DNA of 64,000 nt. It comes from an uncultured Gemmataceae bacterium (GTDB taxonomy: Bacteria; Planctomycetota; Planctomycetia; Gemmatales; Gemmataceae). The stretch spans positions 928,001 to 992,000 of the forward strand of contig CAVVPN010000011.1 of assembly GCA_963750165.1 (NCBI GenBank), written 5' to 3'. A model generated the notes under the pieces. The model was not told where the DNA came from. It saw only the letters and a program-made list of their open reading frames with translations, and searched no databases. A program made the position numbers and the translations under genes. Shown in pieces: positions 12,572-40,875 of this stretch; within the stretch, counting starts at the first letter, position 1, and each line of letters starts with the position of its first letter.

Positions 12572-12641
12572 GACGGATCCTTTCCAAAAGCCACACCCAG
12601 GCAGGCGAGACGCCTGCGCGAAAGAAGAAACGGGCCGCCGC

Positions 12642-16865: not shown

Positions 16866-16960
16866 GGCAACACGTCCCTTCCGGTTCGTTGCCTACAGTG
16901 CGGATTCGAGGTTGGAATTGTCCGGAGGAAAAGAAAAAAGAATTCGGTCGCGCCCGCCTA

Positions 16961-20818: not shown

Positions 20819-22629
20819 TCATGGTTGGAAGAACGCGGCGCCGGCCTCCTCCACCGTCGGCACCACCAGAGCACGGTCCAGGAAGTCGTTGAACTGCTCG
20901 CAGCACGTCTCCGCGATCAACAGGCAGCCGTGGCAGGCCGCGCCCTGCAAGAAACGACGTTCGTGTTCGCTCTGGGGTTCGTGCTGGGCACAAACGGGGT
21001 CATTGGAGCACAGGCCGCCCAGATCCAGCGCCGTTCTCAGGTGCCGGTGAATCTGCTTCCCGGTCTCCACGAGTCCGCCCAGAGTGCCCTCGGCGTCCGG
21101 GGTGCCGGTATACAACAGGATACCGTAGCCCCCGTCGTTGGCGTACACCCGCTCGCGGATGGAACTGGCCGGGTAGCCGCACTCCAGCGACACCGCCGTG
21201 ATCAGCAGGTGCGACAGCGAATGCAGCAGCAGGTACGGCGCGTTCGGGAAGGTGCGCTTGCTCTGCGGGTGCTCGTGCAGCCACCCCTGGAAACCAGCCT
21301 CCAGGCGCTTGAGCCGTTCCCGCACCGCGGGCAGCTGCTCCCAGGCGTCGATGGCGTCCATGCGGAACTGCAGGAACACGCCCTCGCCCCGGTTTTCGAC
21401 CGCTGGGATCCAGCTGACCTCGCGGGCCAGCGACGCCATTTCGGCGCCCACCTGCAACTCGCCCTGCACGTCCGGGCCGTTCGGCTCGAAGCGCGTGAAG
21501 CCCACCTGGGCGACCACCTCGCGCAGCCGGTGGACCAGCACGACGCGCTCCACCTTGTCCATCCACGGCCTGTCCCAGACAACGTGCGGCAAGGCGCGGG
21601 CGTAGAACGTGCCGTCGGGGGCGTCGTGACCGACCTCTTCCTGGGCGGTCGTCAACACCTCCAGTTCGGCCTCCTTCACCGACTTGGCTGCCCCGGCGCC
21701 GCCGGGCGCCCGCCGCGCCAGGACCGCCCGCAGTACCTCGGCGTCGCTGAAGCCCTCCAGCATGTGCTTGACGGTCGCCTTCTTGCGCTCGTACCGCAGC
21801 TGCTCCAGGTCCTCGACGCACTCCAGGAACGACCACGCCTGGTTGACCGCCTTCTCCAGAGCCTCGCCGCGGTCGGGCAGCGAAATCACGCTCAGCACGC
21901 GCGGGAAGTAGGCGTTACTGGCGGAGCGCACCAGCAGGCGGTTCGGCTCGCCGCAGGGCTCGCGCGTCTCGGACAGGCCCAGCCACGGGCGGGCACCCTC
22001 GCAGTTGCCCAGCGCCTTCGCGCCAGGTTCGCCGCCTCGCCAATCGGCCGCCACGCCCCACACTCGCAGCGCACCTGAATTTCCGACAGGTCGCCCGTCG
22101 TGCCGCGTTCGTCAAACCACAGTTGCCGCGGGCAACCGGCCTGGCCGGTATGCACGAAGCCGCGCCAGTCGATGTCGCCGATGTGCCCCCGGCGACAGGC
22201 CCGCACGAACCGCACCGGCACCACGGGCCGACGGCGCTTGTTCACGTCGATGAACTCGCCGCGCGTCAGGAACTTGCGGTGGACCAGCAGCCGCGACCGC
22301 ACCAGTTCGTCGCGCCGGTCCCGCTCCACGTCCTGCGTAATGAACCACTCGGGGAACTGCCAGGCGGTGATGCCGGTGCGCGGCGCCCCGGGCAGCTCGC
22401 CGTCCGGCGGCGGCCCGAACAGTCGCAGGGTATCCACCTCCAGCACCCGCCGGGCCTTGTCCACCAGGCGCGGTTCGTGGATCTCATCGCCGACGCCTTC
22501 CCACTGATCCAGCCCGCCGATGATGACGGAGTGGTTCGGCAACTCCAGCAGCGCGCCGGGGCCGAACGTGGTGATGACCTGACTGCGGCGCACCTGGCCG
22601 TTGGGCCGGGCGTTGGGGCGACGGCTCAT
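20819..22629 (-). CDS. drmB: DISARM DUF1998 protein (frameshift at about 22023)
   Basis: The N-part (GQVRRSQVITTFGPGA, ORF 21892-22629) joins the C-part containing LLHSLSHLL, GTLGGL, CSNDPVC and AACHGC. ATGA overlap with drmA. Confidence 0.87.
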
Positions 22630-25600: not shown

Positions 25601-26024
25601 TCCGGTCCACGCGCTGCCAGTGGAACGTGGCGGGGCGGGGCGGGGAGGCGACCAGGCCGTCGGCACTGCCGAGCGGTTTGTAATCACCCCAGCGGACCAC
25701 CACGCGCAGTTCCTTCGTGTCGGCGGACGCCAGCAGGCTGAGGCCCAGCGAAGAGGGGAAGATGACGCGGCGGGCGTTGGCGGGTTCGGGGGTCACGGCG
25801 TCGTCGGTGCCGCCGGCCTCGTTCTGGATGTCCACGCCCTCGGTGGCGGTGTCGTCCGTCTTCTGGTCCTCAGGCGCGTCGGCGGGCACCAGGAAGCCGG
25901 TCAGATACCAGCGGGAGGGCGTCTGCGGCAGGGTTTCATTCAGCAGGTGCGCGTCGCCGTCCGGCCCGACCAGGTCGAGGTTGAGGGCGTGGATGAGCGC
26001 CTGGCGGACATCAACGGGGCGCAT
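22626..26024 (-). CDS. drmA: DISARM SF2 helicase
   Basis: PSRWYLTGFL, FFPTGGGKTEAYL, MRYTLRLLT, IQDELHLI, ATNMISVGLD and YIQATSRVGR. Confidence 0.92.
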   Translation of the reverse strand: MRPVDVRQALIHALNLDLVGPDGDAHLLNETLPQTPSRWYLTGFLVPADAPEDQKTDDTATEGVDIQNEAGGTDDAVTPEPANARRVIFPSSLGLSLLASADTKELRVVVRWGDYKPLGSADGLVASPPRPATFHWQRVDRTETMTLKVAGKGLVEKEVPNSNGLRLALVARDSRGGGPFEGALPRGTRSVAVFLVNRRKPAPDAERDAAFCFQAALEVHSDTPLVPRPNVRGLTAEDWDERVADLQYRDAFEYAVGHGVSTHAVLDAEGKCREVHTCWVPRAEVERVAPAAIQGVELGMEALAQLSDGAAARAELAALVTQYRAWIDAQKAAVPDQPKKRRETAEELLRRASVAADRIEAGIALLADPQVLDAFRIANGVIAVTQRRRTGQLLGKEPVAVEKPTWRPFQLAFLLMNLRGVVDPGHADREVVDLLFFPTGGGKTEAYLGLAAFTLVLRRLRNPGITSAGLSVLMRYTLRLLTLDQLSRAAALICALELERQRDVTKLGDWPFEIGLWVGRAATPNEMGAKNDGNKFSARTKTIAYKNNDQKAAPIPLELCPWCGEPFRPNSFQLVPNPDQPLNLRVICLNRQCEFGARNPLPILAVDEPIYRRLPCFLIATVDKFAAMPWTGPIGGFFGRVERYNRDGFFGPCELNVGAPLPAPLPPPDLVIQDELHLISGPMGTMVGLYETALDALCAREIGGRTVRPKIVASTATVRRAEKQIRALFSRKEVDIFPPPGPDRRDSFFAQTHTPAQSNARLYVAIAAQGRSPKVGLLRVYLALLGAAQKCYEEAGAAKNKDNPADPYMTLLGYFNSLRELGGTRRIIEDEVSTQITNRSRRKRVGEHSGLFADRAISYEPVELTSRVSTDQVADAKRRLALRYGDKGQVDVAIATNMISVGLDITRLGLMVVLSQPKACAEYIQATSRVGRDADRPGLVVTLLNLNRPRDRSHYERFAAYHQTFYRNVEATSVTPFSPRALDRGLAGTLVALARQAHQPMTAPKGAMEILRERARLDFVVDLLSRRAAEHDKDLSADSVEAIRKRVSDYAKDLFDAWSLIASEYDKLGVALQYQREVGAAKPLLHEYLHPELKTLHTRHLKFRANRSMRDVEPAVNLWVKTLDNMDVEDET

Positions 26025-26120: not shown

Positions 26121-26438
26121 TCAGATGTCGTCAGGACCGACCTGGTCCTGGGTGGCATGGCGAACGCGCAGGACGTTGACCGTCTGGTCATCAATGGTGA
26201 ACAGCACGCGATACACGTTGCGGCGCCGGCCGTAGAGCAATTGGCGCAGGTCCACGCCGAGGTCGTCCGCCTCGTCGGCCGCACCGTAACGGTTCGGGTC
26301 GGTTTCCAGGTTCTCGACGATGCGGAGCAGGCCGGATCGCCACCGAGCGGCCCGCGCTGCGCTGGTCCATGCTAACCACGTCATCGTGGCGGAAATGTCG
26401 GACCGGGCGCGAGGTCGAAAAACGACCTGGAAGGGCAT
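26121..26438 (-). CDS. Type II TA toxin, RelE/ParE family
   Basis: FQVVFRPRARSDI...LETDPNR...LRQLLYG..YRVLFTI...VNVLRVRH pattern. Confidence 0.85.
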   Translation of the reverse strand: MPFQVVFRPRARSDISATMTWLAWTSAARAARWRSGLLRIVENLETDPNRYGAADEADDLGVDLRQLLYGRRRNVYRVLFTIDDQTVNVLRVRHATQDQVGPDDI

Positions 26439-26441
26439 CGT

Positions 26442-26702
26442 TCACTCCCCCTGTTCAAGGGGAAGGTTGAATTCCGCCGCCAGTTCCTTCAAGAATTCCC
26501 GCGCCGGCGTCCCCCGCCCGGCCCGCACGTCCTCCAGCGCCTCACGCAGGATCGCCAGTTCCTGCTCGCGGTCGTAAGGCTCCGCCGGCGGCGCCAGGTC
26601 GTCGGGGTCTGCCAGTTCGACCCGGACCCGCGCCCCGTCGGGCAGCTGCACGCCGCCATCCAGGACAATCGCCCCATTCACCACCGTGCCTTCGAGTGTC
26701 AT
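26442..26702 (-). CDS. Putative cognate antitoxin
   Basis: Small acidic protein 3 nt upstream of the toxin. N-terminal GTVVNGAIVL..LPDG.RVRV (DUF104/AbrB-like) and C-terminal EALEDVRAGRG.PA.EFL helix. Confidence 0.7.
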   Translation of the reverse strand: MTLEGTVVNGAIVLDGGVQLPDGARVRVELADPDDLAPPAEPYDREQELAILREALEDVRAGRGTPAREFLKELAAEFNLPLEQGE

Positions 26703-26813: not shown

Positions 26814-29800
26814 TCAATACTCCAGTTCCGGCTGTTGCGGGTCGGCCGGCTTGGCGGCGCGGCCCTTGCGTGCCTTCTTCGGCGCGGGGGTTGCCGCGGC
26901 GTCAGACGGTTTCTGCCCGGACCGTTTGCGGTTCAGCTCCAGCAAGCGGGCCAGCACCTCATCGCGGAACGCATCAGGCCAGCGGTAGCGCCACGGCTTC
27001 TTGCGTGACCGGCCCTTGCCTTCGTTTTTCTCCTCCTCTTCTACGTAATCCAGGATGAAATCCCAGGTCGGTTGCAAATCCTGCCAACCGTAGGCGTCGA
27101 GCACGGCACGGTCCATCGCCGCGTGCAGTTCGCGCAGTCCCAGGATGTCCGCAGAGCGCTCGTGCGGGTCGTGGAAGCGGTTGTAGGTCTTCGTCAGGCC
27201 CTCGTTGTTCTTGACCATCAGGGCGGCGCGGAACTCGTAGTACGCTTTGCCGACCGCTTCTAATCGGCTGTGGGGCAAGTTTTCAACTTGCCCGGCCGGT
27301 TGGAAACCGGCCCCACATTCCAGTACCCCTTCGGGAAACGGGAATGTCTCGAAGCAGAGCGAGGGGGTATATTGAAGATCATCCTTGAGAGTACTTGACT
27401 GAAAGCGCACCCAAACTTCATGGACGCGAGACTGTAAGACGGCTAAATACTTCGATTTGTCGAATGGAACCACTACTATCTTGTCATTTAGAACTTGTCT
27501 GGCGGGAAGAAAAGTAAACGCAAAGGCATTCCCCACACGAGCGATCCCAAGGATGGTTTGCATCCCGCGGAGGATTGAACGTAATTCGCTGCGTTTCTCT
27601 GCGAACTGCCACCAGAATTTCCGATATGTAGCGCGATTGTCAGACAATCGCGCTGGTCTCACCATTTCTTCGACAATTCGCATAAGATCTGGCCATTGTC
27701 GAGCCTGATCTTCACTCATGTCCTCAAAATCGATTATGAAGCGATGAGCAGTGTGTGTTGGGTTATCGTTGACCTCTTCACCGCCGATGTACGGGAAAAT
27801 TCGCTCCGCGTTCCGCTTGTCCTTGGCGATCAATTCGTGCATGAGGCTGATGGGGCTTGCCACACCGTCCTTGTCAGTGTCGTCGAAGGTGAAACCCATG
27901 CCCAGCACAATGTTACCCTGAAAACTCTTGTTCGCGTTGGGGATCAAGGGCATCGGGTTTTCATGCCCGCCGGCGTGGAACAGATAGGCGGTGATGAGGA
28001 CCACGCTTTTGTCGTCAAGCAGAAACGGCCCTTTCAAGGGTCCTTTGAAAACGTGAATGACGCTGACGACAACTGCGGCCTCCCCCGGCCATTTCATGCG
28101 CCGTTTCGCCGCGTAGATGGTGCCGCCGTTGGTGCAAATCCAGCGCAACCCGGTGGCGCGGGTATCTCCCTGGGCAATGGTGTTGGTGGCGATCAATCCG
28201 AACGCCCCACCATCGCAAAGCAGGTTGAACGCGCGGCGGAAGAAGTGCGCCACCAGGTCGGCGTTGCCGTGCGACTTCTCGTGAACTGCTTTGAGCCAAT
28301 CGGGGTAGCGTTCGTGGTTGCCCTCGGCGACCGTGTTTTTCCCTGCGAAGGGCGGGTTGCCCACGATCACGTCAAAGCCGGGGTTGTCGCGGCTGAAGAC
28401 CTCCGGGAACTCGATCTCCCAGTGGAAGGGCTGCACGGGTTTCGGGCCGTGGAGCAGCGCCTGTTCCCGGTCAGCCGGTCGCAGGGACAGGTCGCCTTTG
28501 GCCAGGTACTCCGTGAGCGCCGCCAGCAAGGTGTCGCGATACGCTTTCCGCTGTTTGTCGGTGGTCCCGGCGAAGAACGCGGCCACGACCAGGTTGCCGG
28601 CAAAGCGGACCAGGTTCAGGCTATTATCAGCCGTTACCAAATCCTGGCTTTTCTGGATCGGCGACATGAAATCCCCGGCTCCCAGGATTCTCAATCGGGC
28701 GTCGAGCGCGGCCTTGATGCGGTCCTCAATGTGCTTCTGGCCGAATACCAGTTGCGGGTTCGGGTTCCAGTGAAAGTCGGCGATGCGGTCGCGGCTCAGG
28801 CCGACCAGCGAGTCGCCGGGCCGTAGGGCGTGGTCGAGGAAGGTAAACGGGTGGTCCTTCGCCAGCGTGACCAGCCAGAGCGACAGCTTGGCCAGGTCCA
28901 CCGCCATCGGGTTTTTGTCCACGCCGTACAGGCAGCGCTGGGCGACCATGCGCTGCGCGAACAATTCGGGCGTCTCATCGTCGGGCACCTTGGGCATGGC
29001 GCCGTGGTGTTCCCAGGCGGCCACGAGGGCGGCGCCCAGCTGGCGGCACGCCTCCACCAAAAACGCCCCGGAGCCCATCGCCGGGTCGCACACCTTCAGC
29101 CCCAGGATCTGCTGCGGCTTCGGCTTCGGACCCAACCGCTCCAGCACCGGCCGCAGGGCGGTCTGCACAATCGGCCCGGTGAGGCTGCGCGGCGTGTAGT
29201 GGGCGCCGGAGCGGCGCCGCTCGGCACTGGGTTGCAGGATCATCGCCTGGCCGGCCACGATGGCGGGCGTCAACTCCTTCGCCACCTTGCGGTCCAGGGC
29301 GGCCACCACGTCCTCGGGCGTCCGCGCCGCCTTCAGCGCCGCCAGGGCCGGACCCGTGACCGTCTGTTCCGTCTGCTCCTTGAGCCATTTCGCCCGCCGG
29401 TCCGCCGGCAGTGCGAGCAACGCCTCCAGGTTGATCGTCACGGGCGCGCCGTGCTTCTTGGTGGGCTTCACCGCGACCGAGCGCCCCGCGGACCGCTCCA
29501 GCCGGAAGCCCATCATGCGCTCGTATACCGAACCGATGTGCTCCACTTCCAGGTGGCGGTACGACAGGTGTTCGCCGTCCACGATCAGCAGGTTGTGCAG
29601 CACGCGGAAGACGACGCCGTCGGACACCAGCGGCGGCCGCAGGCGGGCGTCGTCGCGGCGGTGGCGGTGCGGCCGGCCTTCGAGGAAGGGGTAGCGGTCG
29701 GGGTCGAACAGGTAGCCGTGCCGCGCCGGCAGGACCAGCGTGCCGTGCCGGGCGCCGTCGTGGACGAGGCGGAACAGCGTGAGCAGCTGGGCCCAGGCGC

Positions 29801-30833
29801 CGTAGCGCTGGTCCATCGTGTCGGGGTAGCGGCCAGCGTCGGCGCGGAGGCGGTCGAACAGGCCGGTGAGGGCGTAGTGGTTGACGAACAGGCGGTCGGC
29901 GGGGAGCAGGCCGCGGTCCTCGGCGTAGAGCAGGAACACCAGCCGCATGAGCACGGTGAGCAGGCCGGCGTACACGGTGTCCGGCGCCGCGGCGAGCACG
30001 TCGCGCAGCAGGTCGCCGTGGGCCTGGTCGTCGGCCGCCTGGAAGCCGCGCAGCAGCTCATAGAGGGCGGCGAGCACCTGATCGGCGAGCTGGTCGGACA
30101 CGTCGTTCTGATAGGCGCGGCTCTTTTTGAGGATGTGCGGCAGGCGCTGGCTGTCGTCGAGTTGAAAGACGCGCTCCACGGACAGGAGCATGTGCAGGGC
30201 GGCGAAGATGGGCCGGCCGGCCACCTCGGTCATGGCCTGGACGGGGAAGGTGACGTGGCCGGTGGACTCCTGCCGCGGCGCGTACACCAGGCGCAGGTGC
30301 GTGCCGTTGACGAGCAGGCCGATGGGGACGCGCGTTTCGCGCAGCAGGCGCTCGAAGCGGGCTTGCGGCGACGCCTGCCAGTGATGAGCGGCCGCGGCCG
30401 CGGGGAACTTGTCGAGTTCGGTGCCGGTCGGCAACACCTGAATGAGCAGGATCAGGGGCTGCACGTCGGCCCCGGGGCGCGGCAGTTCGCGGGCGGCGTA
30501 GGTGGGGCGGAGGGTTTCCTGGTAGTCGGTCAGGACGACTTCGAGGGAAGCGGGCAGCGGTTCGGCGCCCGGCCCGCCGAGGAGGTCGCCCGGCTCCCAG
30601 CCGAAGACGTCGCAAAAGAGGCCGGGCAGGTCGGTGACGGCGGCGACAGGGTGGGCGTCGGGCGTGGGCCGCCCCTCCTGGACCCAGTTGAGGAAGCGCT
30701 GGTGTTCGGGCAGGATGTTGCGGTTGACGTACGCCTGCGCCTGGAGCAAGGCCGGGGCCGAGACGACCAGGCCGACCGGCTGCAGGTAGCCGAGCCATTC
30801 CTGGTGCGCCAACAATTCGGGATCTTTCGCCAT
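26814..30833 (-). CDS. drmMI: DISARM class I N6-adenine DNA methyltransferase (about 1339 aa)
   Basis: Start MAKDPELLAHQEWLGYLQPVGLVVS, 4 nt after the drmD stop. GAHYTPRSLT, VCDPAMGSGAFL, GNPPF; the C-terminal target-recognition region is more AT-rich. Confidence 0.88.
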   Translation of the reverse strand: MAKDPELLAHQEWLGYLQPVGLVVSAPALLQAQAYVNRNILPEHQRFLNWVQEGRPTPDAHPVAAVTDLPGLFCDVFGWEPGDLLGGPGAEPLPASLEVVLTDYQETLRPTYAARELPRPGADVQPLILLIQVLPTGTELDKFPAAAAAHHWQASPQARFERLLRETRVPIGLLVNGTHLRLVYAPRQESTGHVTFPVQAMTEVAGRPIFAALHMLLSVERVFQLDDSQRLPHILKKSRAYQNDVSDQLADQVLAALYELLRGFQAADDQAHGDLLRDVLAAAPDTVYAGLLTVLMRLVFLLYAEDRGLLPADRLFVNHYALTGLFDRLRADAGRYPDTMDQRYGAWAQLLTLFRLVHDGARHGTLVLPARHGYLFDPDRYPFLEGRPHRHRRDDARLRPPLVSDGVVFRVLHNLLIVDGEHLSYRHLEVEHIGSVYERMMGFRLERSAGRSVAVKPTKKHGAPVTINLEALLALPADRRAKWLKEQTEQTVTGPALAALKAARTPEDVVAALDRKVAKELTPAIVAGQAMILQPSAERRRSGAHYTPRSLTGPIVQTALRPVLERLGPKPKPQQILGLKVCDPAMGSGAFLVEACRQLGAALVAAWEHHGAMPKVPDDETPELFAQRMVAQRCLYGVDKNPMAVDLAKLSLWLVTLAKDHPFTFLDHALRPGDSLVGLSRDRIADFHWNPNPQLVFGQKHIEDRIKAALDARLRILGAGDFMSPIQKSQDLVTADNSLNLVRFAGNLVVAAFFAGTTDKQRKAYRDTLLAALTEYLAKGDLSLRPADREQALLHGPKPVQPFHWEIEFPEVFSRDNPGFDVIVGNPPFAGKNTVAEGNHERYPDWLKAVHEKSHGNADLVAHFFRRAFNLLCDGGAFGLIATNTIAQGDTRATGLRWICTNGGTIYAAKRRMKWPGEAAVVVSVIHVFKGPLKGPFLLDDKSVVLITAYLFHAGGHENPMPLIPNANKSFQGNIVLGMGFTFDDTDKDGVASPISLMHELIAKDKRNAERIFPYIGGEEVNDNPTHTAHRFIIDFEDMSEDQARQWPDLMRIVEEMVRPARLSDNRATYRKFWWQFAEKRSELRSILRGMQTILGIARVGNAFAFTFLPARQVLNDKIVVVPFDKSKYLAVLQSRVHEVWVRFQSSTLKDDLQYTPSLCFETFPFPEGVLECGAGFQPAGQVENLPHSRLEAVGKAYYEFRAALMVKNNEGLTKTYNRFHDPHERSADILGLRELHAAMDRAVLDAYGWQDLQPTWDFILDYVEEEEKNEGKGRSRKKPWRYRWPDAFRDEVLARLLELNRKRSGQKPSDAAATPAPKKARKGRAAKPADPQQPELEY
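27269..27317. repeat. REP-like doublet inside the drmMI reading frame
   Basis: TGTGG-GGCAAGTT-TTC-AACTTGCC-C-GGCCGGTT-GGA-AACCGGCC-CCACA: two hairpins with GTGG feet in inverted orientation. Confidence 0.75.
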
Positions 30834-30837
30834 GACA

Positions 30838-33800
30838 TCACCCCGATACCGGCCAGAGGTAGACCAGGCCCACCGGCTCGACGCGGCGGGCCAGGATGCG
30901 GTACAGGCCGCGGATGCGTTCCGGTTCCTGCACCAGTTCCGTGTCGATGGCCGCCAGGCGCTGGTCCCAGTGGCGGCGGTTGGCCTCCAGCTGCCGCGTC
31001 TCGTCCGGGTCGAAGTCCAGCCAGCCTTGCGGGTCATTGTGCTCCCGGGCCGTGGCGGCGATGCGCTTCCGCTGGTTCTCCAGGATTTCGCGCATGGCCT
31101 TCGCCTCCTGGTCGCCGCGTTCGGCGAGCTTCACCTCCGCCTCCTCCCCCAGGCGTCGGCCGCGTTCCTCCAGGGCGGGCAGCAGTTCGCGGATGTCCTG
31201 CGGCCCCGCCTCCTGCAGCTGCTTGATGATGCCCGCGCCGACGGTCGGCGCCGCCCCCGGCAACAGCGCCGCTTCCAGCAGGTCGATTGTTTTTGCCTCG
31301 GCCTCACGGGCGTAAGGCGTCAACGGCTTGCCCTTGCGCTGCGATGGCTCCGCCCACCGCGCCGTGACGTGGATCAGCACCTCGTGCAGCCGGGCCGCCC
31401 CGGGGCCGTACAGGCACAGCCGGCCGAGCAGGACGACGCGCCGCAGCGGGTCCGCGGTCTGCGTCAGGCAGGCCCGCGAGAGGTCGTGAAAGACGAACCC
31501 CTGGGCGGTGAAGCGGCCGAGCAGGCGCTGCACGACGCGGTGTTCCAGGTGCAAGTGTACGGAGTCCTGGCCCATGTCGCCCGGGTCGTCAAAGACGATG
31601 GGCCGGATGGGCGCCTGCCGCCGCCACTCCCAGAGCGACTGGTCGCGGCGCCGCGGCGCCCGCAGCGTGTCCAGCGTGTCCGTCCAGCTCGAATCGGCGC
31701 CGGCGCGGCCCTCCAGAGCTGGGAACTGCCAGCGCGCCGTGGGCGATGGTTCGGCGGGCGCGTTCGCCAGCGTCTGAAGCGGGTCGGCCCCCATCAGCCC
31801 CAGGGCACAGGAGATGGCGGCGCGGAAATGGTTCTCCTCCAGGCCCACCCAGTCCTTCGAGTCCTTCAAGCGCGTCCGCAGCAGTTCCACCTGGGCCCGT
31901 AAATCCTCCACCCGTTCCCGGGCCTCTTCCAGTTCTTCCTGCACGGTGCCCTTGAACCGGGCGTCCAGGTCGGCCCGGTCGATGATGCCGGCGAGCCGGT
32001 CCACGTCGGCGTGGCGGATGCCGTTGGTGAGCGTGGCGGCCAGCTTGCCCTCGACCACCTGCGCGAGGCTGCCCAGTTCCTTCTTGATCGTCTCCGTCTT
32101 GCGGACCAGCACGCGGAGCACGCGATCCTCGGGGCGCTGGGCGTAGACGAAGTAGTGACAGAACACCTCCGGCCGGGGCTGCAGCTTGCGGTCGATGCGG
32201 CCGTTGCGCTGCTCCATACGGCTGGGGTTCCAGGGCACGTCGAAGTGGAACAGGTTCCAGCAATGGCTCTGCAGGTTGATGCCCTCCCGGGCCGCGTCCG
32301 TGGCCAGCAGGATACGCACGGGGTGCTTGCGCGGGTCGGTGTTGAACGCCCGCTTGATCTCCTCGCGCCTGGCCTGGGGCGTCGGGCCGTGGTAGACCTC
32401 GATGCGCTCGTCTGCGCGGTCGGTACCCTGAATCGCGACGGTCAGCTGCTCGCGCAGGTAACGCAGCGTGTCCTCGTACTCGGTGAAGATGAGCACGCGC
32501 ACGTCGTTCCAGCGCGGCGGTTGCTCCGGCGGCGCCGTTCCCAGGGGCGGGAGACCGGGGCACAGGGTTTCCCGGAGCCAGTCCACCAGCCGCCGCACCC
32601 GCGCATCCGGCAGGCTGCGGGACGCCTCCGCCACGCGGGTCATCGCATCGAGCAGGACTTGTTCCTCGCTGCCATCCGCCGCGGCCGGGCCGGTGGGGGC
32701 GCTGGCGACCGTGGCGGCCTCAATCTGCGCTTCCTCCTCGGCGGACAGCAGGGTTTCGGGCAAGGTCGCCCGCTCGTCGTCGCTGCCAATCCCTCCCCCG
32801 AGCAGGTCCAATCGGCCGGTGCTGGCCGTCAAGGCGGCCCGCTCCTGGCGCTGCCGCTCGATGGTGCGGCGGTGGACGCGCAGGGTCCGCGCGAAGGCTT
32901 CGATGGACGAGAGCAGCCGCTGTTGCAGTCCCGAGATGAGCAGGCTGGCGACCGCCTGTTTGCGTTTGGTTTCCTCGCGGAGTCGCTCCTCCCGCAGCCG
33001 GCGGTACTGGTCGAGCAATGCGGACAACCGCAGTTCCGGCGCCTCCGCGGGCAGGTTGTCGATGTCGAACTGGCGGACCACGCGCTGCGGGAACACTTCA
33101 TGGATCTGGCGGACATCCTCCTTGAGCCGCCGCACCATGACGGCTTCCAGCAGTTTCTTGTCCTTGACCGGCACGCCGCGGCAGAAGCGCTGCGGGTCGA
33201 GGATTTCCAGCAAGGCGGAGAAGCTGTTGGAGTGGCCGTTGTGCGGCGTCGCGGACAGAAACAGGCGGTGCTCGAAGCGCGGCGCCAGGTCCCGGATGGC
33301 CCTGGTGATCTTGGAGTCGATGGCGTAGCGGCCGCCGCTGGACGGCGCGGCGTGGTGGGCCTCGTCCAGGATGAGCAAGGCGCCGGCCCGGAAGTCCCCG
33401 AGCCAGTCGCGCAAGGGGCCGGCGTAGGCTTCGTCCACGAGCAGGCGGTGCGAGATGAGGAAGCGGCTGTGGGTGGTCCAGGGGTTGACCCCGTAGCCGC
33501 GCTCGCGGCGGACGCGCGTGACGAAGTCCTTGTCGAGAATCTCGAACGTCAGGCCGAAGCGGTTTTCCAGTTCGTCCTGCCACTGCTGCAAGACCGAGGG
33601 CGGGCAGGCGACGACGATGTCCCGGACCTTCTTGCGGAGCAGCAGTTCGCGGGCGATGAGACCGGCCTCAATCGTTTTGCCGAGTCCGACGTCGTCCGCG
33701 ATGAACAGGTTGACGCGCGGCAGCAGCAGGGCCTTGCGAAGGGGTTCCAGCTGGTAGGCGTCGATGCGGATGCCGGCGCGGAAGGGCGCCTGGAACAATT

Positions 33801-34101
33801 TCGGGTTGGTGGCGGTGACACAGTTCCAGCGCAGCGTGTGCAAATACGCCGAGAACAGCCGGGGCGGGTCGAAGCCGCGGGTGGAGAGCGCGTCCCAGGA
33901 GGTGTCGCCCAGGATCTCGGCGTCCACTTCTTTCTGCCAGAGCACCTCCAGGGGCTTTCCCTGGTTGTCGTCATCCAGGCAGGCCATGCAGACCACGGCA
34001 CAGTCACCGACCCGCGGCGGGTTGGTCACTTCCTCAACGAGATACTGGCGCTGGCGCACGCGGACGATCTGGCCGAGTTTCGGAATCGAGTCGTCACGCA
34101 T
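30838..34101 (-). CDS. drmD: DISARM SNF2-like helicase
   Basis: GQIVRVRQRQYLVE, IADDVGLGKTIEAG, DEAHH, LSATPHNG, TDAAREGINLQ, WNPSRMEQRNGRIDR and EPVGLVYLWP. Confidence 0.92.
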   Translation of the reverse strand: MRDDSIPKLGQIVRVRQRQYLVEEVTNPPRVGDCAVVCMACLDDDNQGKPLEVLWQKEVDAEILGDTSWDALSTRGFDPPRLFSAYLHTLRWNCVTATNPKLFQAPFRAGIRIDAYQLEPLRKALLLPRVNLFIADDVGLGKTIEAGLIARELLLRKKVRDIVVACPPSVLQQWQDELENRFGLTFEILDKDFVTRVRRERGYGVNPWTTHSRFLISHRLLVDEAYAGPLRDWLGDFRAGALLILDEAHHAAPSSGGRYAIDSKITRAIRDLAPRFEHRLFLSATPHNGHSNSFSALLEILDPQRFCRGVPVKDKKLLEAVMVRRLKEDVRQIHEVFPQRVVRQFDIDNLPAEAPELRLSALLDQYRRLREERLREETKRKQAVASLLISGLQQRLLSSIEAFARTLRVHRRTIERQRQERAALTASTGRLDLLGGGIGSDDERATLPETLLSAEEEAQIEAATVASAPTGPAAADGSEEQVLLDAMTRVAEASRSLPDARVRRLVDWLRETLCPGLPPLGTAPPEQPPRWNDVRVLIFTEYEDTLRYLREQLTVAIQGTDRADERIEVYHGPTPQARREEIKRAFNTDPRKHPVRILLATDAAREGINLQSHCWNLFHFDVPWNPSRMEQRNGRIDRKLQPRPEVFCHYFVYAQRPEDRVLRVLVRKTETIKKELGSLAQVVEGKLAATLTNGIRHADVDRLAGIIDRADLDARFKGTVQEELEEARERVEDLRAQVELLRTRLKDSKDWVGLEENHFRAAISCALGLMGADPLQTLANAPAEPSPTARWQFPALEGRAGADSSWTDTLDTLRAPRRRDQSLWEWRRQAPIRPIVFDDPGDMGQDSVHLHLEHRVVQRLLGRFTAQGFVFHDLSRACLTQTADPLRRVVLLGRLCLYGPGAARLHEVLIHVTARWAEPSQRKGKPLTPYAREAEAKTIDLLEAALLPGAAPTVGAGIIKQLQEAGPQDIRELLPALEERGRRLGEEAEVKLAERGDQEAKAMREILENQRKRIAATAREHNDPQGWLDFDPDETRQLEANRRHWDQRLAAIDTELVQEPERIRGLYRILARRVEPVGLVYLWPVSG

Positions 34102-34312: not shown

Positions 34313-35851
34313 TCACATGCCGGCAGTTCTGCTGCGCTGGAAAACATAGGGCACCTCCTTGACCCCGCCCCGCTGGCCCTCGTGCTCCTGCACCAGCTGC
34401 GCGGCGTACCCCAGGCAGTCGATCTGGTCATCTTTGCCGCCATCCGCGCCGACAAACACCGCCAATTCTGCCAGGAAGTCCCCTAGCCAGGGCGCCTCTA
34501 CGGGGAGGTAGATTTGCCCCGCTTCGGCCCGAATTACCGCGGGCAGCGCCCGTACCAGCTTGCTTTTGCCGCCGGGGTGCAACTCCTTGACCGGCACCAT
34601 GCCGGCCAACTTCCGGGCCTGCTGCGCCAGTTTGCCCTGAAAGAAGCCGGTCTCCAGCGCCGCGAAGCTCGGCCGCCACTGGTCGCACACGGCCTTGAGC
34701 CGCGGCACGATGGCCTCCAGCGGCACACGCTCGCGGAGCATGTACTCCAGCAACAGATCGCAGCCGGGCGTAACCGCGAACACGCCGGCGGCGGTAAAGT
34801 CTGCCGAACTCGATTCGCCCCCCGCAGGGTCCAGCACCACGAACCGCCAGCAGTCGCGCTTGAGCACCGGGGGCCCACCGGCCAGGCGGTAGGCGTCGCC
34901 CTGATCGACGAACCGACGTTTCTCAAACCAGGCCGTCTTGAAAATGGCGCCCTCGCGCGGCACCGGGCGCTGCTGGTGCTGCGCCAGGTAGCCGGCGCTG
35001 CCGAGCGTGCGCTTCGCCTCCGCGGTCTGTTCGGGGCCGAACACTTCGGGGCGGAGCAGCTGCCCCGGCTCGGTCCGCCAGTCCGACCAGCCGATGGGCG
35101 TGGCGCAGCGCTCCCTGGGGTCGTACTCCTCCTGGAGCAGCAACTCGACCCAGTCGCCGCTGCGGCGCAGGTGGCCGATGAGGTCGTCGTGGTGGACGCG
35201 CTGGCCGATGACCACGCGGCCGCCCAGTCGGGCGTCGTTGACGCGGTTGAAGAACGCCTGGTCATGCCAGTCGATGGTGCCCAGCCGGACCGCCGCACTC
35301 TCGGCCTCGCGGACGTTGTGCGCGTCGTCGATGAGGGTGAACTGGCCGCGCTCGCCGGTGGTGCCGCCGTCCACCGACGCCGTGACGCGGAAGCCGGTCC
35401 GGTCGTTCTCGTACCGCTCCTTGACGTTCTGGTCCCCGGTCATCCGGAAGCAGTCGCCGAAGTGCGCCTGGTACGGCGGCGACTCGATGACGCGGCGGCT
35501 GCGGACGCTGTCGCGCAGGGCGAGCTTCAGGGCGTAGGAGGCGGTGACGAAGCGGTCGGCGGGCCAGTTGACCCAGTGCCAGGCGGGCCAGAGCACCGAG
35601 GCGACCGTGCTCTTGCCGAGGCCGGGCGGGCACTCGACCAGGAGGTTGCGGAGTTGGCGCCGGCTGACGGCCTCCAGGTGGTCGCAGACCGCGTCCAGGT
35701 GCCGGCCCCAGCGCAGCGGCGTGGCCGGCTCGACGACGGGCCAGGCCCAGCGGACGAAGTCACGCAGGCGGCGCCGCGCCTTCTCCGCCCGGACCTGGCC
35801 CAGGGGTGGCAGCCCGGTCGAGAATCGCTTCGAGCGTATCGAGGTCATCAT
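34313..35851 (-). CDS. terL: Phage terminase large subunit
   Basis: Walker A PPGLGKST, Walker B LIDDAH, coupling motif IGQRVH..DL, AQHQQRP, nuclease DPA..DFT and DDQID. The start is uncertain because it overlaps terS. Confidence 0.9.
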   Translation of the reverse strand: MMTSIRSKRFSTGLPPLGQVRAEKARRRLRDFVRWAWPVVEPATPLRWGRHLDAVCDHLEAVSRRQLRNLLVECPPGLGKSTVASVLWPAWHWVNWPADRFVTASYALKLALRDSVRSRRVIESPPYQAHFGDCFRMTGDQNVKERYENDRTGFRVTASVDGGTTGERGQFTLIDDAHNVREAESAAVRLGTIDWHDQAFFNRVNDARLGGRVVIGQRVHHDDLIGHLRRSGDWVELLLQEEYDPRERCATPIGWSDWRTEPGQLLRPEVFGPEQTAEAKRTLGSAGYLAQHQQRPVPREGAIFKTAWFEKRRFVDQGDAYRLAGGPPVLKRDCWRFVVLDPAGGESSSADFTAAGVFAVTPGCDLLLEYMLRERVPLEAIVPRLKAVCDQWRPSFAALETGFFQGKLAQQARKLAGMVPVKELHPGGKSKLVRALPAVIRAEAGQIYLPVEAPWLGDFLAELAVFVGADGGKDDQIDCLGYAAQLVQEHEGQRGGVKEVPYVFQRSRTAGM

Positions 35852-36191
35852 CGGACACGTTGGCAAGGTTGATAGTGTGGGCCAGCTGCCCGCTCTGCCG
35901 CACCTCAGAGCGCTCCACGAAGCCGCGGTCCTTGCCGAGGGTCTTCAGCGTCAGGGCGATGGCCCAGGGCTCTCCCCGCTTGATCGCGGCGAACAACTTT
36001 TCCTCGGCGGTGTCCACGACTTCGCCACGCCGGTTGGCGATACACCTGGCGATCTCCGGGCTCTGCCTCGCGCGGTTGTAGATCGTGTCCGGGTCGCAAC
36101 CGAGGCTCTTGGCGGCGAGGTAGACCAAGCCCTTCGTTTTGCTGAGGGCCGCCTTGATCTGGTCGTCGGAGTACACACGCGGCCTGGCCAT
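35760..36191 (-). CDS. terS: Phage terminase small subunit (HTH)
   Basis: Fis-like HTH (GLVYLAAKSLGCDPDTIYN) and AEEKLF..I..GEPWAI..LKT.GKDRGFVER; overlaps terL. Confidence 0.75.
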   Translation of the reverse strand: MARPRVYSDDQIKAALSKTKGLVYLAAKSLGCDPDTIYNRARQSPEIARCIANRRGEVVDTAEEKLFAAIKRGEPWAIALTLKTLGKDRGFVERSEVRQSGQLAHTINLANVSDDDLDTLEAILDRAATPGPGPGGEGAAPPA

Positions 36192-36574
36192 GATAAATCC
36201 CGAGTAACCTAGAAATCATGTAGTACGGGCACCTCGTGCCGCAGATCGTCGGCCCCACCCGGCGGGGACATTTCGTGTCTGTGATCTTGCCCACTACACC
36301 AGAGGGTCGGCCCGCAGTTCTTCCGCGCGTACCATCCCCAACTGCGGCATTGCTGAGAGCTGCACCTTTCAGGCGTCGGACTCGTTGACCCCACTGGCCC
36401 CTGGGAACGTTTTTTTCTCCTACGCGCGTGCGCATCAATGTCTTCTTGTCTTCCTGTCGTGCGCGCACGATAGAAAAATAATTTCATCTACAACCCAAGT
36501 GGACATTTCGGCGCCGCAATGACTTGCGGCAAATCGTCTCCGCCGCAGTTAGTGACAGACGCAAGGGGGTGCCA

Positions 36575-38738
36575 CTAATCTGCTGAGTGACACCCCCCAT
36601 TTGTTGTCACTGATTCCTCAATGTCCCTCTCGGGAGCCGCGATCAGAATTTCGTCCCGCAGGTCGTCGGAGAGCACAATCAACCGATGGCCGCCAGAAAG
36701 TCGGTCAGTCACCGGCGGGTCGGGGTTCAGGCAGCCGGCCTTCTTTGCCAGGGCCTGCAGCGAGTCCTGGTTGATCACCCCCGGTAACATCACTTCAATC
36801 TCCCCTGCGAGTTCCCACCGCATGCCGAGGTACAGCGTCACCTCCCCCTCGTTCGTCACCACCGCCCGCCAATATGCGTGATGCGCCCGCTGCACTTCCC
36901 GCCAACCGCGAGAGGACTCCCGCACCCCCGTCGCCACGTCCCTGGCGCGCCGGGCCAGACTGGTCTTGCTGGCGGTGCGCACGTCGCCGTCGCCCGGCTT
37001 CAGCAACTCGAAGGTCTTCGGCTTCGTCCACAGCGACACCAGGTTCGCCCGGAACCGCATGGAGAACCGCATGTCCCGGGTCAGGTTGGCGGCCGAGATG
37101 AGGGGTTCCGTCTCGATCAGGTTGGCGTACAGCACCGTCAGTTCGTCGCGCAGCGCCCCCAGGAGCATGCCCCGGTTCATCCCCGCGGGCGATTGAGGGG
37201 CGTCCGCCGCTGCCGCCGCAGCCTTCAGCAACCGCTCGGGCGTGAAGGCGATCAGGTCGGCCCGCGTCAGTTCGCCGTCCTTGGCGTCAGACCACAATCC
37301 CTTGTCGGTGCGGCCGACGATCTGCAGCGCCGTGGGCACGATAGTGCGAACCACGTCCCGTAGGTTGAGGGCGGCCACCGGCGGCCCGTGATCTAGTTCC
37401 TGGGCGGCGGCCGCGATGATCCGCGCCAGTAGCAGCTGCACTTCCGTCGGCTTGGGAGCTTCACCTGCGAAATGAGCGGCCAGCGTCCGCGCCGCCGCCC
37501 TGCGGCCGCCGTCCGTATTGCTCAACGGCACCTGGTCGAGCATCACGCCGTCGCGCAGCACCGCCACGCTGAGCGTAATCCGCCCGGAGCCGGTGCGCCG
37601 TGGCAGGCCCGGTCGCAAGGTGACGCCACCGATTTCATGGCCCGCCGGCACCTCTACAACCTCGCGGTCGTCCTGTTCGACTCTGACCGCCTTCCGCCGT
37701 CGTCGCTGCTCGCCGTAGCCCTGGTGGCTTAGATCGGCGGCAGCCTGCTTGAAGTCGCCGCCGTGATTCAGGATCGCGTAGACGGCGAATCGGTTGTACG
37801 CCTTGTTGGGTTCGAACGGGCTAGCGTTGCTGCTGAAGACGTAGAGCAAGGGGTTGCCGTCCTCATCCCGGCAGTGCCCGATGGTGGCGGACCAGCCCTT
37901 GCTTTTGCCTGGCCGGCGCACTGCGCAGCACGCCGTCGGCTGTCTCCTGGACCACCTCCCAACCCTGCAACAATTCCTCGATTGGTGGGCCGCAGCGAAT
38001 GTAGTCGTCACCCGGTCGCACCCCATCCCCCTTGGCGCTGACCGCCTGGGGCCGACTCTGGCGCGGCTGGTTGACGCCCGCCCGCTGGAACGACCTGGCC
38101 GTCTCGTGCAACAACTCGCGTTCGTCGGGAGAGAGGTCGGCCAGCTCGGAGAACGTGCGCCCCGCGTGATGCTGGTACTGCCCACCCGCATCGTGGCAGG
38201 CCCCGGGCGAGCCCGGGGCCAGGCCCTGGCCGCCCTCGCCGCGCGTCTCGATCAGCGTGCGCAGCAGGGCATTGCCGTGCGCGTCGCGTTGGATTTTGCC
38301 GGTGTCGTCATACCGATAGTCTGTCGCCAACTTCAGGTTGCCCGGGATGACGCCGGCTCGGCAGGTGTACCAGCAGTGAAACCGACCGCTCGGCGTCCTG
38401 ACCTGGCACAATCTGGCGACCAGCCCTGGCGCCTGCTGTTCGACCAGGGCGCACCAGGTCGGGAAGATCGTATCTGCTTCAACGTCGAAGTCTAGCAGTT
38501 CCAGGTTGCCGCTGGCCTTGCCGCAGCGCAGGCCGATGCCGTTGCGGCCGTCGCCGAACCACTTCTGAAGTTCGTCCGGCGTCGGCGCTGCCAGGTTTTG
38601 CCACCCCTTCAGGAAGGGTCGTTTCTCGCCGTTTGGCAGGATGGGCGTAACGGCGATCTTGGCGGCCCGGTAGCCCAGGGCATAGTCCAGAACCGTCAGC
38701 CGGTCTTCGGTGCCGTTGATGCTGGTGGGAGGTGTCAT
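36575..38738 (-). CDS. Bifunctional primase-polymerase (Prim-Pol) with an unrecognised C-terminal region; frameshift at about 37920
   Basis: KRPFLKGWQ, GIGLRCG..SGNLELLDFD, RTPSGRFH and IETRGEGG..LAPGS. It continues in another frame as RRPGKSKGWSAT..LYVFSSN..HGGDFKQAA. Confidence 0.8.
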
Positions 38739-38902
38739 AGGTCGGCCCTCCCGCCTTTGCCAATTGTCGCCGCTGAAGATACCATGTTCTATGTTCCCGA
38801 TTCGTTTTTGGCGGAGGGACCGCGAATCCCTGCCGCCTTTTTTCAAACTCACGCCACGCCTCTTGGCGCTCCGCCTGCGAACGGTTAGCCAGCCAGACGG
38901 GG

Positions 38903-39259
38903 TCAGATGCCGATCCGGTCGAGTTCCTTGTCGGCGCGGGCCGCTGCGCTCTGACGTTTCGCCGGTGAGCGCGAAGCGGGGATGTCGCCCCGGGCGGCCT
39001 TCGGCGTCTGCCTCTCAATGAATCGTGCCAGGGCGGGGCCGGTCGTGATCCAACGGCCTGACAGCCTCGCGGCCTCCAGGTAAACCCGCTCGCCGTTTGG
39101 CCCCGCGGTGCCGTTCAGCACCCAGCGCAGCACACAGCCCAAAGTCGGCTTCTTGCCGCCGCGTGTCACCGGCAGCCGCTGGCCAGCCTCCACCAAACTC
39201 AACCCCTGCCCGGCCGCGATCTCTTCCGCCAGTGTGTCCGTGGTCGTCTCGTCGTTCAT
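38903..39259 (-). CDS. DUF1580 protein (planctomycete HTH, likely excisionase/regulator)
   Basis: LSLVEAGQRLP..GKKP....VLRW..G.....LEA.RL.GRW.TT..ALARF and a ADKELDRIGI tail; lies next to the integrase. Confidence 0.8.
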   Translation of the reverse strand: MNDETTTDTLAEEIAAGQGLSLVEAGQRLPVTRGGKKPTLGCVLRWVLNGTAGPNGERVYLEAARLSGRWITTGPALARFIERQTPKAARGDIPASRSPAKRQSAAARADKELDRIGI

Positions 39260-39544
39260 GGTGTCCCCCTCGTGCTCGATAGTTGTCCGCCGCTTGCCAG
39301 AGCCGACGAACATTCACGGATTATGGGGGCTACATGGGTGTGTTTCGGTGCCGTCCCTTGCTTGTTGGTGTCCGCCGCTCACCGCGGACGACGAGTTGTT
39401 GCGACCACTCGTGGGCACACCGATTTTCAGCCGCAAACGCATTCCGGCGGTTGGCACCGTCTTAAGGCCCCAACCGCCGGAATGCGTTTAGCTGATGTTA
39501 TTTACGGAAATATGCGATCGTCCGCTGCGGAAGCAAAATCGGCG

Positions 39545-40723
39545 TCAGCCGATGTCCCGCATGATCTCCTGCGCCTTGTTCAAGTCCCGCTCTGCGTAGA
39601 TTTGCGTCGTCTCAATCCGGGTGTGTCCGAGGACCGTTTTTGCAGCCTCGACGCCGAACTTCGCTCGGATCGCGGTCGCAGCCGTGTGTCGCAGCTGCAG
39701 GGGCGACCACGCTGGCACCTTGGCCTTTTGACAGGCCCGGACGATGGCGACGCGGAAGCTCCGTCGGTTGTAGCGCTCGGCGGGGACGCGGCGGGGCTGG
39801 GGCTTACGCTTCCGCTTCAGTTCCGAGGGCGTCCGCTTGGTTTTCCGCTGGGCGGCCCGCCGGCGGCGCAACTCTTCGACGTAAGCGCGAGGGCTGAAGA
39901 GGTACGCTTCCAGGTTCGTGGTCAGGAACGGCTTGACGATCTCCTGGGCCTGTGGCCCGAGATGGATGATGCGGTCCAGGCCGCGGTGCTTGTTCTTGTG
40001 GCTAGCCGGGCAGTAGGTCCAGACTGGCCCGGCCATGTTCAGGTCGGCGGCGCGCATGACCATGACCTCACCCGGCCGGCACCCGGTCAGCCGCTGCAGC
40101 CCCACCATGGCCCGTACTGGTTCGGGCAGGAACGGGAGGGTGGCGGTCACAACCTCGTCGGCGACGGGTTGGACAGGCGGGGCTTCCTTTGCCGAACAGC
40201 GGCCGCGCTGCAAGCCCGGCACGGTGCGCAGGGATTCAAAGACGGCGGACGGGATGTGTTGGTAACTGACGGCCCACTTGAACACGCGGCGGACGCGGTT
40301 GACGCGGGCGTTGACCACGCCGCGGGACAGGCCGGACTTGGCCAGGTCTTCTTGAATGGTGCGGAGTGCCAGGGGGCCGAACGCCGCCGCCTGGGAGTGA
40401 CTGTAGAGGCGTCGGAGGGGCTTGAGCGCGTTGCGGATGTTCTCCAGCTCTAGGCCGGGGTTGCCCTGGTCATCGCGGTAGTAGCCTTCGGCCCAGTGCC
40501 AGTAGCTCACCATCAGTTCGGCCACGGTCGGGCCGTCGGCCGCCGGCGCGGCCAGACTGCGGCCGCTGCCGAGCCATTCGGCAATGAGCCGGTCGTACTC
40601 CGCGCGGCTTTCGGCAGAGCCGAAGGCGCCCAGATAGTGGTCTTTGCCGTCGATGCGCACGACGGCCCGGCCGCTGGCTTTGTGCAGGCAGTAGGAGGGG
40701 GTGCGGGGTGCTCGCTTGGACAT
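39545..40723 (-). CDS. int: Tyrosine integrase
   Basis: N-terminal PSYCLHKASGRAVV; TGCRPGE, HKN, QLRHT, LGH and TQIYA; starts about 110 bp from the tRNA fragment. Confidence 0.93.
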   Translation of the reverse strand: MSKRAPRTPSYCLHKASGRAVVRIDGKDHYLGAFGSAESRAEYDRLIAEWLGSGRSLAAPAADGPTVAELMVSYWHWAEGYYRDDQGNPGLELENIRNALKPLRRLYSHSQAAAFGPLALRTIQEDLAKSGLSRGVVNARVNRVRRVFKWAVSYQHIPSAVFESLRTVPGLQRGRCSAKEAPPVQPVADEVVTATLPFLPEPVRAMVGLQRLTGCRPGEVMVMRAADLNMAGPVWTYCPASHKNKHRGLDRIIHLGPQAQEIVKPFLTTNLEAYLFSPRAYVEELRRRRAAQRKTKRTPSELKRKRKPQPRRVPAERYNRRSFRVAIVRACQKAKVPAWSPLQLRHTAATAIRAKFGVEAAKTVLGHTRIETTQIYAERDLNKAQEIMRDIG

Positions 40724-40739
40724 GGTGCAAAGGCCCTTT

Positions 40740-40753
40740 TCCGTAATTACGGA
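40740..40753. promoter_or_regulatory. Perfect palindrome TCCGTAATTACGGA just upstream of the int start
   Basis: Seen directly; it lies within a longer imperfect IR, CCTTTTCCGTAATTACGGAGAAGG. Function is inferred. Confidence 0.45.
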
Positions 40754-40831
40754 GAAGGATTCCTTTCCGGGCTGCACCATTCACCGCGAATGGGTACGCT
40801 CAACCTGAGTCTGGTTGAGGATTTCTGTCTA

Positions 40832-40875
40832 GAGCGGGCGATGGGATTCGAACCCACGACGTCCAGCTTGGGAAG
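40832..40875 (-). tRNA. 3' half of tRNA-Gly(CCC); att core, not a complete tRNA
   Basis: The minus strand reads CTTCCCAAGCTGGACGTCGTGGGTTCGAATCCCATCGCCCGCTC: anticodon loop, T-arm and acceptor 3' strand. The 5' half is absent. Confidence 0.9.

Follow-up and report, generated by a model that had tools for sequence, protein, structure and literature searches.

A tRNA-Gly-targeted integrative element from a Gemmataceae genome with both terminase subunits, a DISARM locus and no head genes detected

The window analyzed here is a 64,000-nt stretch of the genome of an uncultured Gemmataceae bacterium (NCBI GenBank assembly GCA_963750165.1, contig CAVVPN010000011.1, positions 928,001 to 992,000). It holds most of a 44.5-kb tRNA-Gly-targeted integrative element that carries genes for both terminase subunits (terS and terL), followed directly by a defence island system associated with restriction-modification (DISARM). 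Coordinates are those of the window unless a contig or locus name precedes them (C11 is the host contig that contains the window), and the element is on the minus strand. A first-pass annotation, made from the sequence alone, had listed in order an attachment site (att), an integrase gene (int), a DUF1580 gene, a primase-polymerase (Prim-Pol) gene, terS, terL and drmD, and had suggested a planctomycete type of satellite that brings a whole packaging motor and borrows helper heads. All of these parts are present where it had placed them, on the minus strand, and the distance of about 210 bp that it gave from terL to drmD measures 211 bp, with drmD starting at 34101.

Gene content and boundaries of the element

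The left junction of the element is an att core of 44 bp (40831..40874, minus strand), a perfect copy of the 3' part of tRNA-Gly(CCC). There are six copies of this core in the host genome, several of them followed by an integrase: five are on C11, and one belongs to the intact tRNA-Gly(CCC) gene, which sits on contig C1, not C11. ARAGORN found no tRNA within the window. A palindromic arm-type site, TCCGTAATTACGGA (40740..40753), precedes the integrase, and three copies of its TACGGA unit lie inwards of the next att (C11:924,365), 122–144 nt away from it, the sole place in the 9.6-Mb genome where at least three TACGGA units cluster within 40 nt. Both neighboring islands also have their own repeat units at each end. 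From the sequence, we infer that these end repeats (TACGGA and the units of the neighbors) are integrase arm sites. Because the arm-type repeats fix the far end at C11:924,366, the element is taken to be 44,509 bp long, with DISARM inside it. It thus reaches 3.6 kb past the left edge of the window, and its core occupies 6.5 kb of the 44.5 kb from att to att.

The tyrosine integrase gene (39545..40723, minus strand, in an open reading frame [ORF] open to 40780) matches PF00589 (E 3.2e-14) and phrog_1, and through these two profiles it counts as the integrase of a phage-inducible chromosomal island (PICI) in the SatelliteFinder model. Between it and the following gene lies a perfect 20-bp inverted repeat (39435..39489), possibly a terminator or an operator. 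The following gene encodes a DUF1580-like helix-turn-helix (HTH) protein (38903..39259, minus strand) that has no PHROG match and matches PF07618 under the curated cut-off (E 0.0095), although other members of its protein cluster (c1) pass that cut-off. It is likely an excisionase or AlpA-type regulator.

The Prim-Pol replication protein (36575..38738, minus strand) matches PF09250 (E 1.9e-18), which makes it a primase-replicase in the PICI sense; both of its halves match phrog_19930, and no helicase domain was recognized in the C-terminal half. As assembled, the gene is in two frames, with one extra base near 37922. In a 151-bp contig of DNA run X1 (depth 3.8) one base is missing at 37922, and with it gone the gene reads through 720 codons without a break; a paralogue at C11:730 kb also reads in one frame. 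Going by the one X1 contig, the frameshift is probably an assembly error. Run X1 consists of scattered contigs (8% of words) that give no useful coverage of the att junction and none of the drmB break described below. Only a 92-aa ORF with no database match lies between the primase gene and terS, and no pac- or cos-like repeat stood out there.

Terminase genes without detectable head or tail genes

The small terminase subunit gene, terS (35760..36191, minus strand), encodes a protein with an HTH and long helices that matches phrog_4044 weakly (E 0.006). It is the gene context, the profile match being weak, that makes it a small terminase in the PICI sense: of the 81 viral loci with a TerS of this family, 59 have a recognized TerL directly after terS, and 18 more have an unlabelled ORF of 340–590 aa in that place. 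The AlphaFold2 model of TerS (pLDDT 85.8) had no fold match in the PDB at E 0.001 or better; the top rows of that search (a Bacillus phage protein at E 0.78 and Sf6 TerS at E 2.2) were not used as evidence. No member of the family was found in a sample of 400 further genomes of the phylum.

The large subunit gene, terL (34313..35851, minus strand), is full length and matches phrog_38 (E 3.8e-75). Residues that we take to be the Walker A lysine (K80), the Walker B acids (D175/D176) and the nuclease acids (D341, E400 and D474/D478) are invariant in 26 homologues. The AlphaFold2 model (pLDDT 86.5) finds, as its top Foldseek matches, the terminases of PhiV-1, T4, D6E, Sf6 and HK97. A sequence search of the PDB with the TerL profile gave no match, and scans of viral and metagenome contigs with the single protein returned nothing, alignments being needed for such searches.

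Across the 44.5-kb element, a six-frame search for portal, protease and capsid with profiles from related loci gave TerL only, whereas the same head-gene profiles match a head module on host contig C3 (the positive control). Matches to phrog_12 and phrog_10 in the host are found only on C3, C2 and C10, and phrog_113 was uninformative in this genome. There is no PHROG tail match among the ORFs of the element in the window, the last 3.6 kb outside it having been gene-called only. None of the capsid, portal, protease or head-tail genes of capsid-forming PICIs (cf-PICIs) occurs in the 44.5 kb, the element has no cf-PICI-type HNH nuclease before terS, and it has no capsid-morphogenesis gene (a PICI core gene, though often missing). 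There is also no prophage-type operon of portal, capsid and tail genes after terL; drmD is there instead. The lack of portal, capsid and tail genes that had been noticed at first was thus borne out, for tail genes by the PHROG scan of in-window ORFs.

Head genes might be present but unrecognized, either because their sequences are too divergent or because they sit in another part of the tandem island array; we consider this very improbable. It is true that portal profiles at first overlooked the head genes of two surveyed loci (L393 and L403, where the capsid was recognized only by the Atlas or by weak PHROG matches) and that phrog_113 matched no control genome. Against this, every long ORF between att and drmC is assigned, the gap after terL is only 211 bp, and the rest of the element is made up of insertion sequence (IS), kinase, sigma factor and DUF4214-type genes.

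Headless loci across Gemmataceae

The integrase family of the element is present in 103 of 208 Gemmataceae genomes. From 150 of 260 matches, 80 regions were chosen for contig room, and 79 of these hold the integrase. TerL was detected in 12 regions, a count that depends on the seeds used, with other lineages possibly missed. Seven of the 12 have no detected head genes (L291, L293, L299, L301, L305, L306 and L356) and are referred to as headless. Two loci that had been listed as headless, L043 and L298, were rejected when a portal was found after an inserted gene.

A second survey used the cassette of terS and a preceding phospholipase D (PLD)-like gene. The element in the window has no PLD gene; its sister islands in the same genome have PLD-terS (the PLD-like gene of one of them is L027:12963-13613), and a search of 252 Gemmataceae genomes gave 71 matches, spread over 39 of them. 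The PLD-like protein, found directly before terS in islands and phages, has an H-x-K ... GSxN motif and a weak match to an endonuclease profile (phrog_16945); by analogy, it may fill the part of the HNH nuclease in cos-type packaging. We examined 36 loci: the 9 seeds, a set in which TerL is over-represented by choice, and 27 others taken because their contigs offered room, whatever genes they held. Among the seeds, 8 have TerL and none has a portal. The 27 unselected loci include 18 with TerL (of at least four lineages) and 9 with terS only. No portal lies downstream in 17 of the 18, given 1.1–4.5 kb of room (at least 2.8 kb in 16), and the sole portal among the 27 is in L438, an intact-looking prophage with the most distant PLD gene fetched. 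In 16 of the 17 headless loci the 6.5 kb upstream contain no head gene, and in 13 of these 16 they contain a primase, helicase or integrase. In the five genomes that were checked whole, phrog_12 portals are far from the headless islands.

The same cassette occurs in 11 IMG/VR loci, and in all six of those with room a portal is found within about 2.5 kb of terL. Because these viral cassettes continue into the portal, the chromosomal copies can be said to end at terS or terL, and not randomly in the late operon. The terS-terL cassettes of headless islands are native phage cassettes.

Because terS-only and terS-plus-terL versions coexist (9 and 18 of the 27) and TerL lineages swap freely, TerS looks like the core component. 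This would fit an account in which the terminase serves to interfere or to cut and not to fill heads: TerS would redirect the helper motor as in classical PICIs, whereas TerL would jam helper portals or make the first cut only. In the cutting variant, the integrated copy might itself be cut, and the defence genes downstream of it would then leave by lateral transduction. Defence loci (DISARM, type I restriction-modification [R-M], CRISPR-Cas and helicase systems) do lie directly downstream in many islands, and PICIs mobilize downstream DNA by lateral transduction (PMC12829572; here and below, published work is cited from the portions of text available to us). However, ATPase and nuclease motifs are both conserved, and a pure decoy would need neither. 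Nothing speaks directly for interference, and we hold the account as a whole to be improbable.

Selection on TerL was estimated by the Nei-Gojobori method, with pairs above 50% identity only. In one genome (G099), three headless copies (94.6–97.4% nucleotide identity) adjoin two integrase types and share only a 2.6–2.8-kb PLD-terS-terL stretch, which ends at the end of terL. Their TerLs give dN/dS of 0.08–0.19 at dS of 0.07–0.16, and one copy has 5' frameshifts. In Acidobacteria, portal-less TerLs give dN/dS of 0.10–0.17 (15 pairs of 6 sequences).

Several of these results bear on what the first-pass annotation had proposed. The search it suggested, for int-DUF1580-primase-terS-terL without head genes, turned up such elements across Gemmataceae. 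Its account would have given way to a deleted prophage had all close relatives carried portal and capsid genes after terL, and this is not what was found: headless loci recur in the family. As for a planctomycete satellite type, headless loci of at least four TerL lineages, under purifying selection where measured, speak for it, but a family in Acidobacteria has the headless layout too, so that the restriction to planctomycetes does not stand.

Some loci in these surveys are of interest in their own right. The Acidobacteria family, seen in several copies per genome in metagenome-assembled genomes (L136-L153 and related), is separate, with a large serine recombinase, a small accessory gene, a ParB-methylase, terS and terL. 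Three headless Gemmataceae loci (L291:3566-10238, L306:6068-12978 and L356:7791-18488) have a tape-measure-like gene (in L291 a weak match to phrog_167) and a conserved 620-aa protein after TerL; L291 and L356 have a gene in common after terL despite different TerL types. In genome G123 (L305:226-9484), a type I CRISPR-Cas locus (cas6, cas3, a cas7-like gene, further cas-like genes and repeats) begins 250 bp after the terL of a headless island. Five regions (L285, L288, L312, L332 and L338) have a protein of ~340 aa (cluster c18, no Pfam or PHROG match) in the packaging slot and no terminase genes. TerL is encoded by two adjacent genes in L301, L306, L414, L423, L429, L432, L434, L437 and L294, an ATPase (phrog_7579/phrog_2) and a nuclease (phrog_27743), and several genomes share the break point; two nuclease-like genes are found in L414, and the C3 module of the host has a related fused form. 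L294 (G019:C1:859,400-879,300) has the order int-HTH-capsid-portal-head morphogenesis-terS-split terL, interrupted by an IS. It is possibly a cf-PICI-like element in Gemmataceae, with no tail gene in the fetched stretch. Finally, L393 and L403 were initially classed as portal-less, which was rejected because the profile label had misled and both carry a capsid gene. At the expected portal site they have a conserved opposite-strand ORF of ~400 aa (L393:6919-8238 and L403:10132-11358, both minus strand) with no PHROG match. This ORF may merely mirror, in antisense, a portal gene that has been broken.

Cargo and neighboring islands

All five genes that we take to define DISARM class I are matched by PADLOC, in the order drmD, drmMI, drmA, drmB, drmC, all on the minus strand. 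They are drmD, an SNF2 helicase gene (30838..34101, E 0); drmMI, a class I methylase gene (26814..30833, E 0); drmA (22626..26024, E 5e-296); drmB (20819..22629, with DrmB matches on both pieces of a gene that is in two frames as assembled); and drmC, a PLD nuclease gene (20027..20812, E 9e-90). Apart from the frameshift in drmB, the locus differs from DISARM class I in having a ParE-type toxin-antitoxin pair (26121..26702, minus strand) between drmMI and drmA. The toxin gene (26121-26384) matches PF05016 (E 2.6e-7); the 86-aa ORF upstream of it has no match and, from its position, would be the antitoxin. The remaining genes within the att boundaries (1..19644) encode a transposase, two ECF-type sigma/kinase pairs and four related secreted-looking proteins, the one of these that was scanned being a DUF4214 protein. 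This part may be carried cargo or a later insertion.

The host has two further islands with the order integrase-HTH-primase-PLD-terS-terL. The TerL of L027 is of another phrog_38 subtype and is followed by a type I methylase, and that of L028 matches phrog_2 and is followed by a helicase system. Other islands are less complete: L029 has a terS-like gene only, followed by drmD; L025 is broken by an IS; and L433 has terS without TerL.

On C11, tandem islands are split by copies of the tRNA-Gly(CCC) 3' end at 924,322, 968,831, 1,032,810 and 1,054,053, which are spaced 44.5, 64.0 and 21.2 kb apart; further copies are at C11:20,766 and C1:387,555. The end-repeat units of the islands in this array are TACGGA, TTAAACGA and TTCCGCA, one unit per island and at both of its ends. 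In the neighboring 64-kb island (window 41022-64000, on C11 to 1,032,853), the integrase points away from att. The island carries a methylase, ParB, a second DISARM-like set (drmC, UvrD and drmB, with drmD/MI-like genes farther on) and a tail-sheath-like gene (L026:6797-8446, phrog_23).

There are head modules elsewhere in the host that could help. One, at C3:2,481,594-2,495,087, is a terL-portal-protease-capsid cluster beside tgt-yajC-secD with no obvious tail or integrase, its gene labels coming from N-terminal sequence. Other possible helpers are a prophage on C2 and a prophage-like region at C11:2,246-2,268 kb.

Satellite or relic

In our preferred reading, to which we give roughly an even chance, the island is a phage satellite that fills helper-made heads with its own DNA by means of its own motor. 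Upon helper infection the HTH protein would trigger excision, and Prim-Pol would replicate the excised circle. TerS would recognize a site in or near terS, the TerL of the element would cut and pump DNA towards DISARM, and this TerL would dock on the portal of the helper. DISARM would then travel with the element DNA into empty helper heads. With its 44.5 kb and no capsid-shrinking gene seen, the element would match a head of full size.

Elements of this kind probably have more than one origin; in each case the packaging operon of a phage would have been retained as far as the end of terS (PICI-like) or of terL. Because end points cluster at terS and terL, TerL lineages swap, the cassette spreads and dN/dS is low, a maintained headless state is favored over random decay. 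One may go further and envisage Gemmataceae "motor-forming" satellites, intermediate between PICIs (terS only) and cf-PICIs (whole head), that repeatedly capture terS-terL cut before the portal, swap TerLs to suit each helper and fill foreign proheads with defence cargo tens of kilobases long. Since three states (terS only, terS plus terL, and full head) share one backbone of integrase, DUF1580 and primase, such a family would show gain and loss of packaging autonomy. We put this broader proposal forward tentatively, as somewhat less probable than not.

The chief alternative is that the island began as a prophage, or as a cf-PICI-like element resembling L294, and was stripped of all genes downstream of terL as DISARM came to occupy that place. 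The terS-terL pair would then be a passenger, and the island would move by hitch-hiking or not at all. We judge this unlikely, yet it has to be taken seriously, as a number of observations count against a working satellite, many of them pointing to a relic. Head genes are present beside TerL in 5 of the 12 TerL loci of the integrase survey (L294, L298, L339, L353 and L360), so that full prophages and headless islands share the integrase family. Two of these full prophages (L339 and L353) are equally compact in the early region before terL, and L294 shares its terS and TerL types with headless islands. Many TerLs are broken as assembled: 7 of the 17 in headless unselected loci, where error and decay are indistinguishable, and those of both L027 and L028, which are frameshifted. 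The host prophages have no similar TerL. No close headless relative of the TerL in the window comes with genomic context, and the dN/dS figures are those of other lineages; for split-type TerLs they are 0.23–0.49 at near-saturated dS, and such deep pairs may reflect selection in phage ancestors. A foreign TerL may, moreover, misfit the helper portal, because the TerL and capsid trees of cf-PICIs are linked (10.1101/2022.09.08.507074). The sole archaeal precedent was itself read as a relic by its authors (PMC6563490).

The two TerL trees (FastTree, midpoint roots) are also double-edged. The TerL of the element groups with proteins of 50–62% identity whose genomic context is not retrievable. The wider clade mixes the headless L068 and L291 with L393, a prophage that has a capsid gene. 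In the second tree, two phage contigs with portals, L541 and L203 (47% identity), also fall within the same clade as the TerL of the window. We therefore rejected the idea that this TerL belongs to a clade of capsid-less loci only, on account of L203, L541 and L393. The TerL phylogeny that the first-pass annotation recommended accordingly gave a divided answer, with headless loci in the clade and portal- or capsid-bearing ones as well. Most TerLs of Gemmataceae prophages form a main clade of their own, apart from this one. It should be noted that the labels for "no portal" in the first tree overcount headless loci, because L393 and L403 carry a capsid gene. Because headless TerLs mix with phage TerLs in the trees, the headless state arose repeatedly, out of phage cassettes, and does not mark one old lineage.

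The distribution of end points argues against a relic. Only 1 of the 36 chromosomal PLD-cassette loci has a portal, the others stopping at terS, terL or an IS, and random decay would be expected to leave some portals. In addition, the G099 cassette has spread to three sites with dN/dS below 0.2, and in the window both terS and terL are full length with intact motifs.

If the satellite reading is correct, it provides a route for moving large defence loci (DISARM, CRISPR-Cas and R-M) in Planctomycetota. The specificity of TerL for its portal is usually considered tight; if the "motor-forming" family is real, TerL can work on a non-cognate portal. Tools that take TerL as a mark of prophages would misfile such islands as decayed prophages. 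The Gemmataceae family offers matched terS-only, terS-plus-terL and head-bearing versions for a direct test.

Comparison with known systems

Known satellites borrow the TerL of a helper or build a whole head, and the TerL of a motor-only element would need to engage a portal that is foreign to it. PICIs encode TerS and rely on the helper for TerL (PMC10085698, PMC13612085), and cf-PICIs have TerL together with a full head (10.1101/2022.09.08.507074). We found no TerL-bearing headless class of satellites in the literature searched, in which subscription papers were thinly covered and supplements were outside the search, and no satellite study in Planctomycetota in that literature.

The closest printed case that combines an integrase with TerS and TerL and no other viral genes, and the sole one found, is NitKor-E1 of Ca. 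Nitrosopumilus koreensis AR1 (Krupovic et al. 2019, PMC6563490). It is integrated, has a tyrosine integrase and carries toxin-antitoxin and restriction cargo, all of which resembles the island. It differs in being a single archaeal case and a likely relic according to its authors, whereas the island family is bacterial and multi-lineage, with a primase, defined ends and, for some lineages, selection data. Among tycheposons, VEIMEs and EPIPs (covered by 10.1101/2020.12.28.424599, 10.1101/2022.07.26.501625 and PMC12822802), tycheposons resemble the island in their tRNA-targeting integrases and primases, and PICI-like tycheposons, VEIMEs and EPIPs share terS with it. A tape measure gene is found in EPIPs and apparently also in L291 and some relatives. 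In the text available, however, these elements have terS or a capsid gene and not TerL, unlike the island. Archaeal satellites with the packaging ATPase of spindle-shaped viruses (10.1101/2025.02.15.638363) offer a loose parallel.

With cf-PICIs (Alqurainy et al., 10.1101/2022.09.08.507074) the island shares its own TerS and TerL, and the HNH gene that precedes terS in cf-PICIs has a counterpart in the nuclease-like PLD-type gene before terS in many Gemmataceae relatives. The island itself has no such nuclease gene, and it lacks the capsid, portal, protease and head-tail genes of that class, for which L294 is a possible Gemmataceae sister. With PICIs (the SatelliteFinder model; de Sousa et al. 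2023, PMC10085698, the main text of which nowhere contains "Planctomyc") it shares the order integrase, HTH, primase, terS, the cargo after terS and the lack of any portal or tail gene found. It departs from them in its TerL (listed as cf-PICI-specific in PMC10085698), in having no capsid-morphogenesis gene, in an HTH that is DUF1580-like and not shown to be AlpA, MerR or Stl, and in its size of 44.5 kb. With its own TerL next to TerS, the element has the terminase pair of cf-PICIs and fails to share the absence of TerL that marks PICIs. It is outside the membership of both, and it would work most like a PICI.

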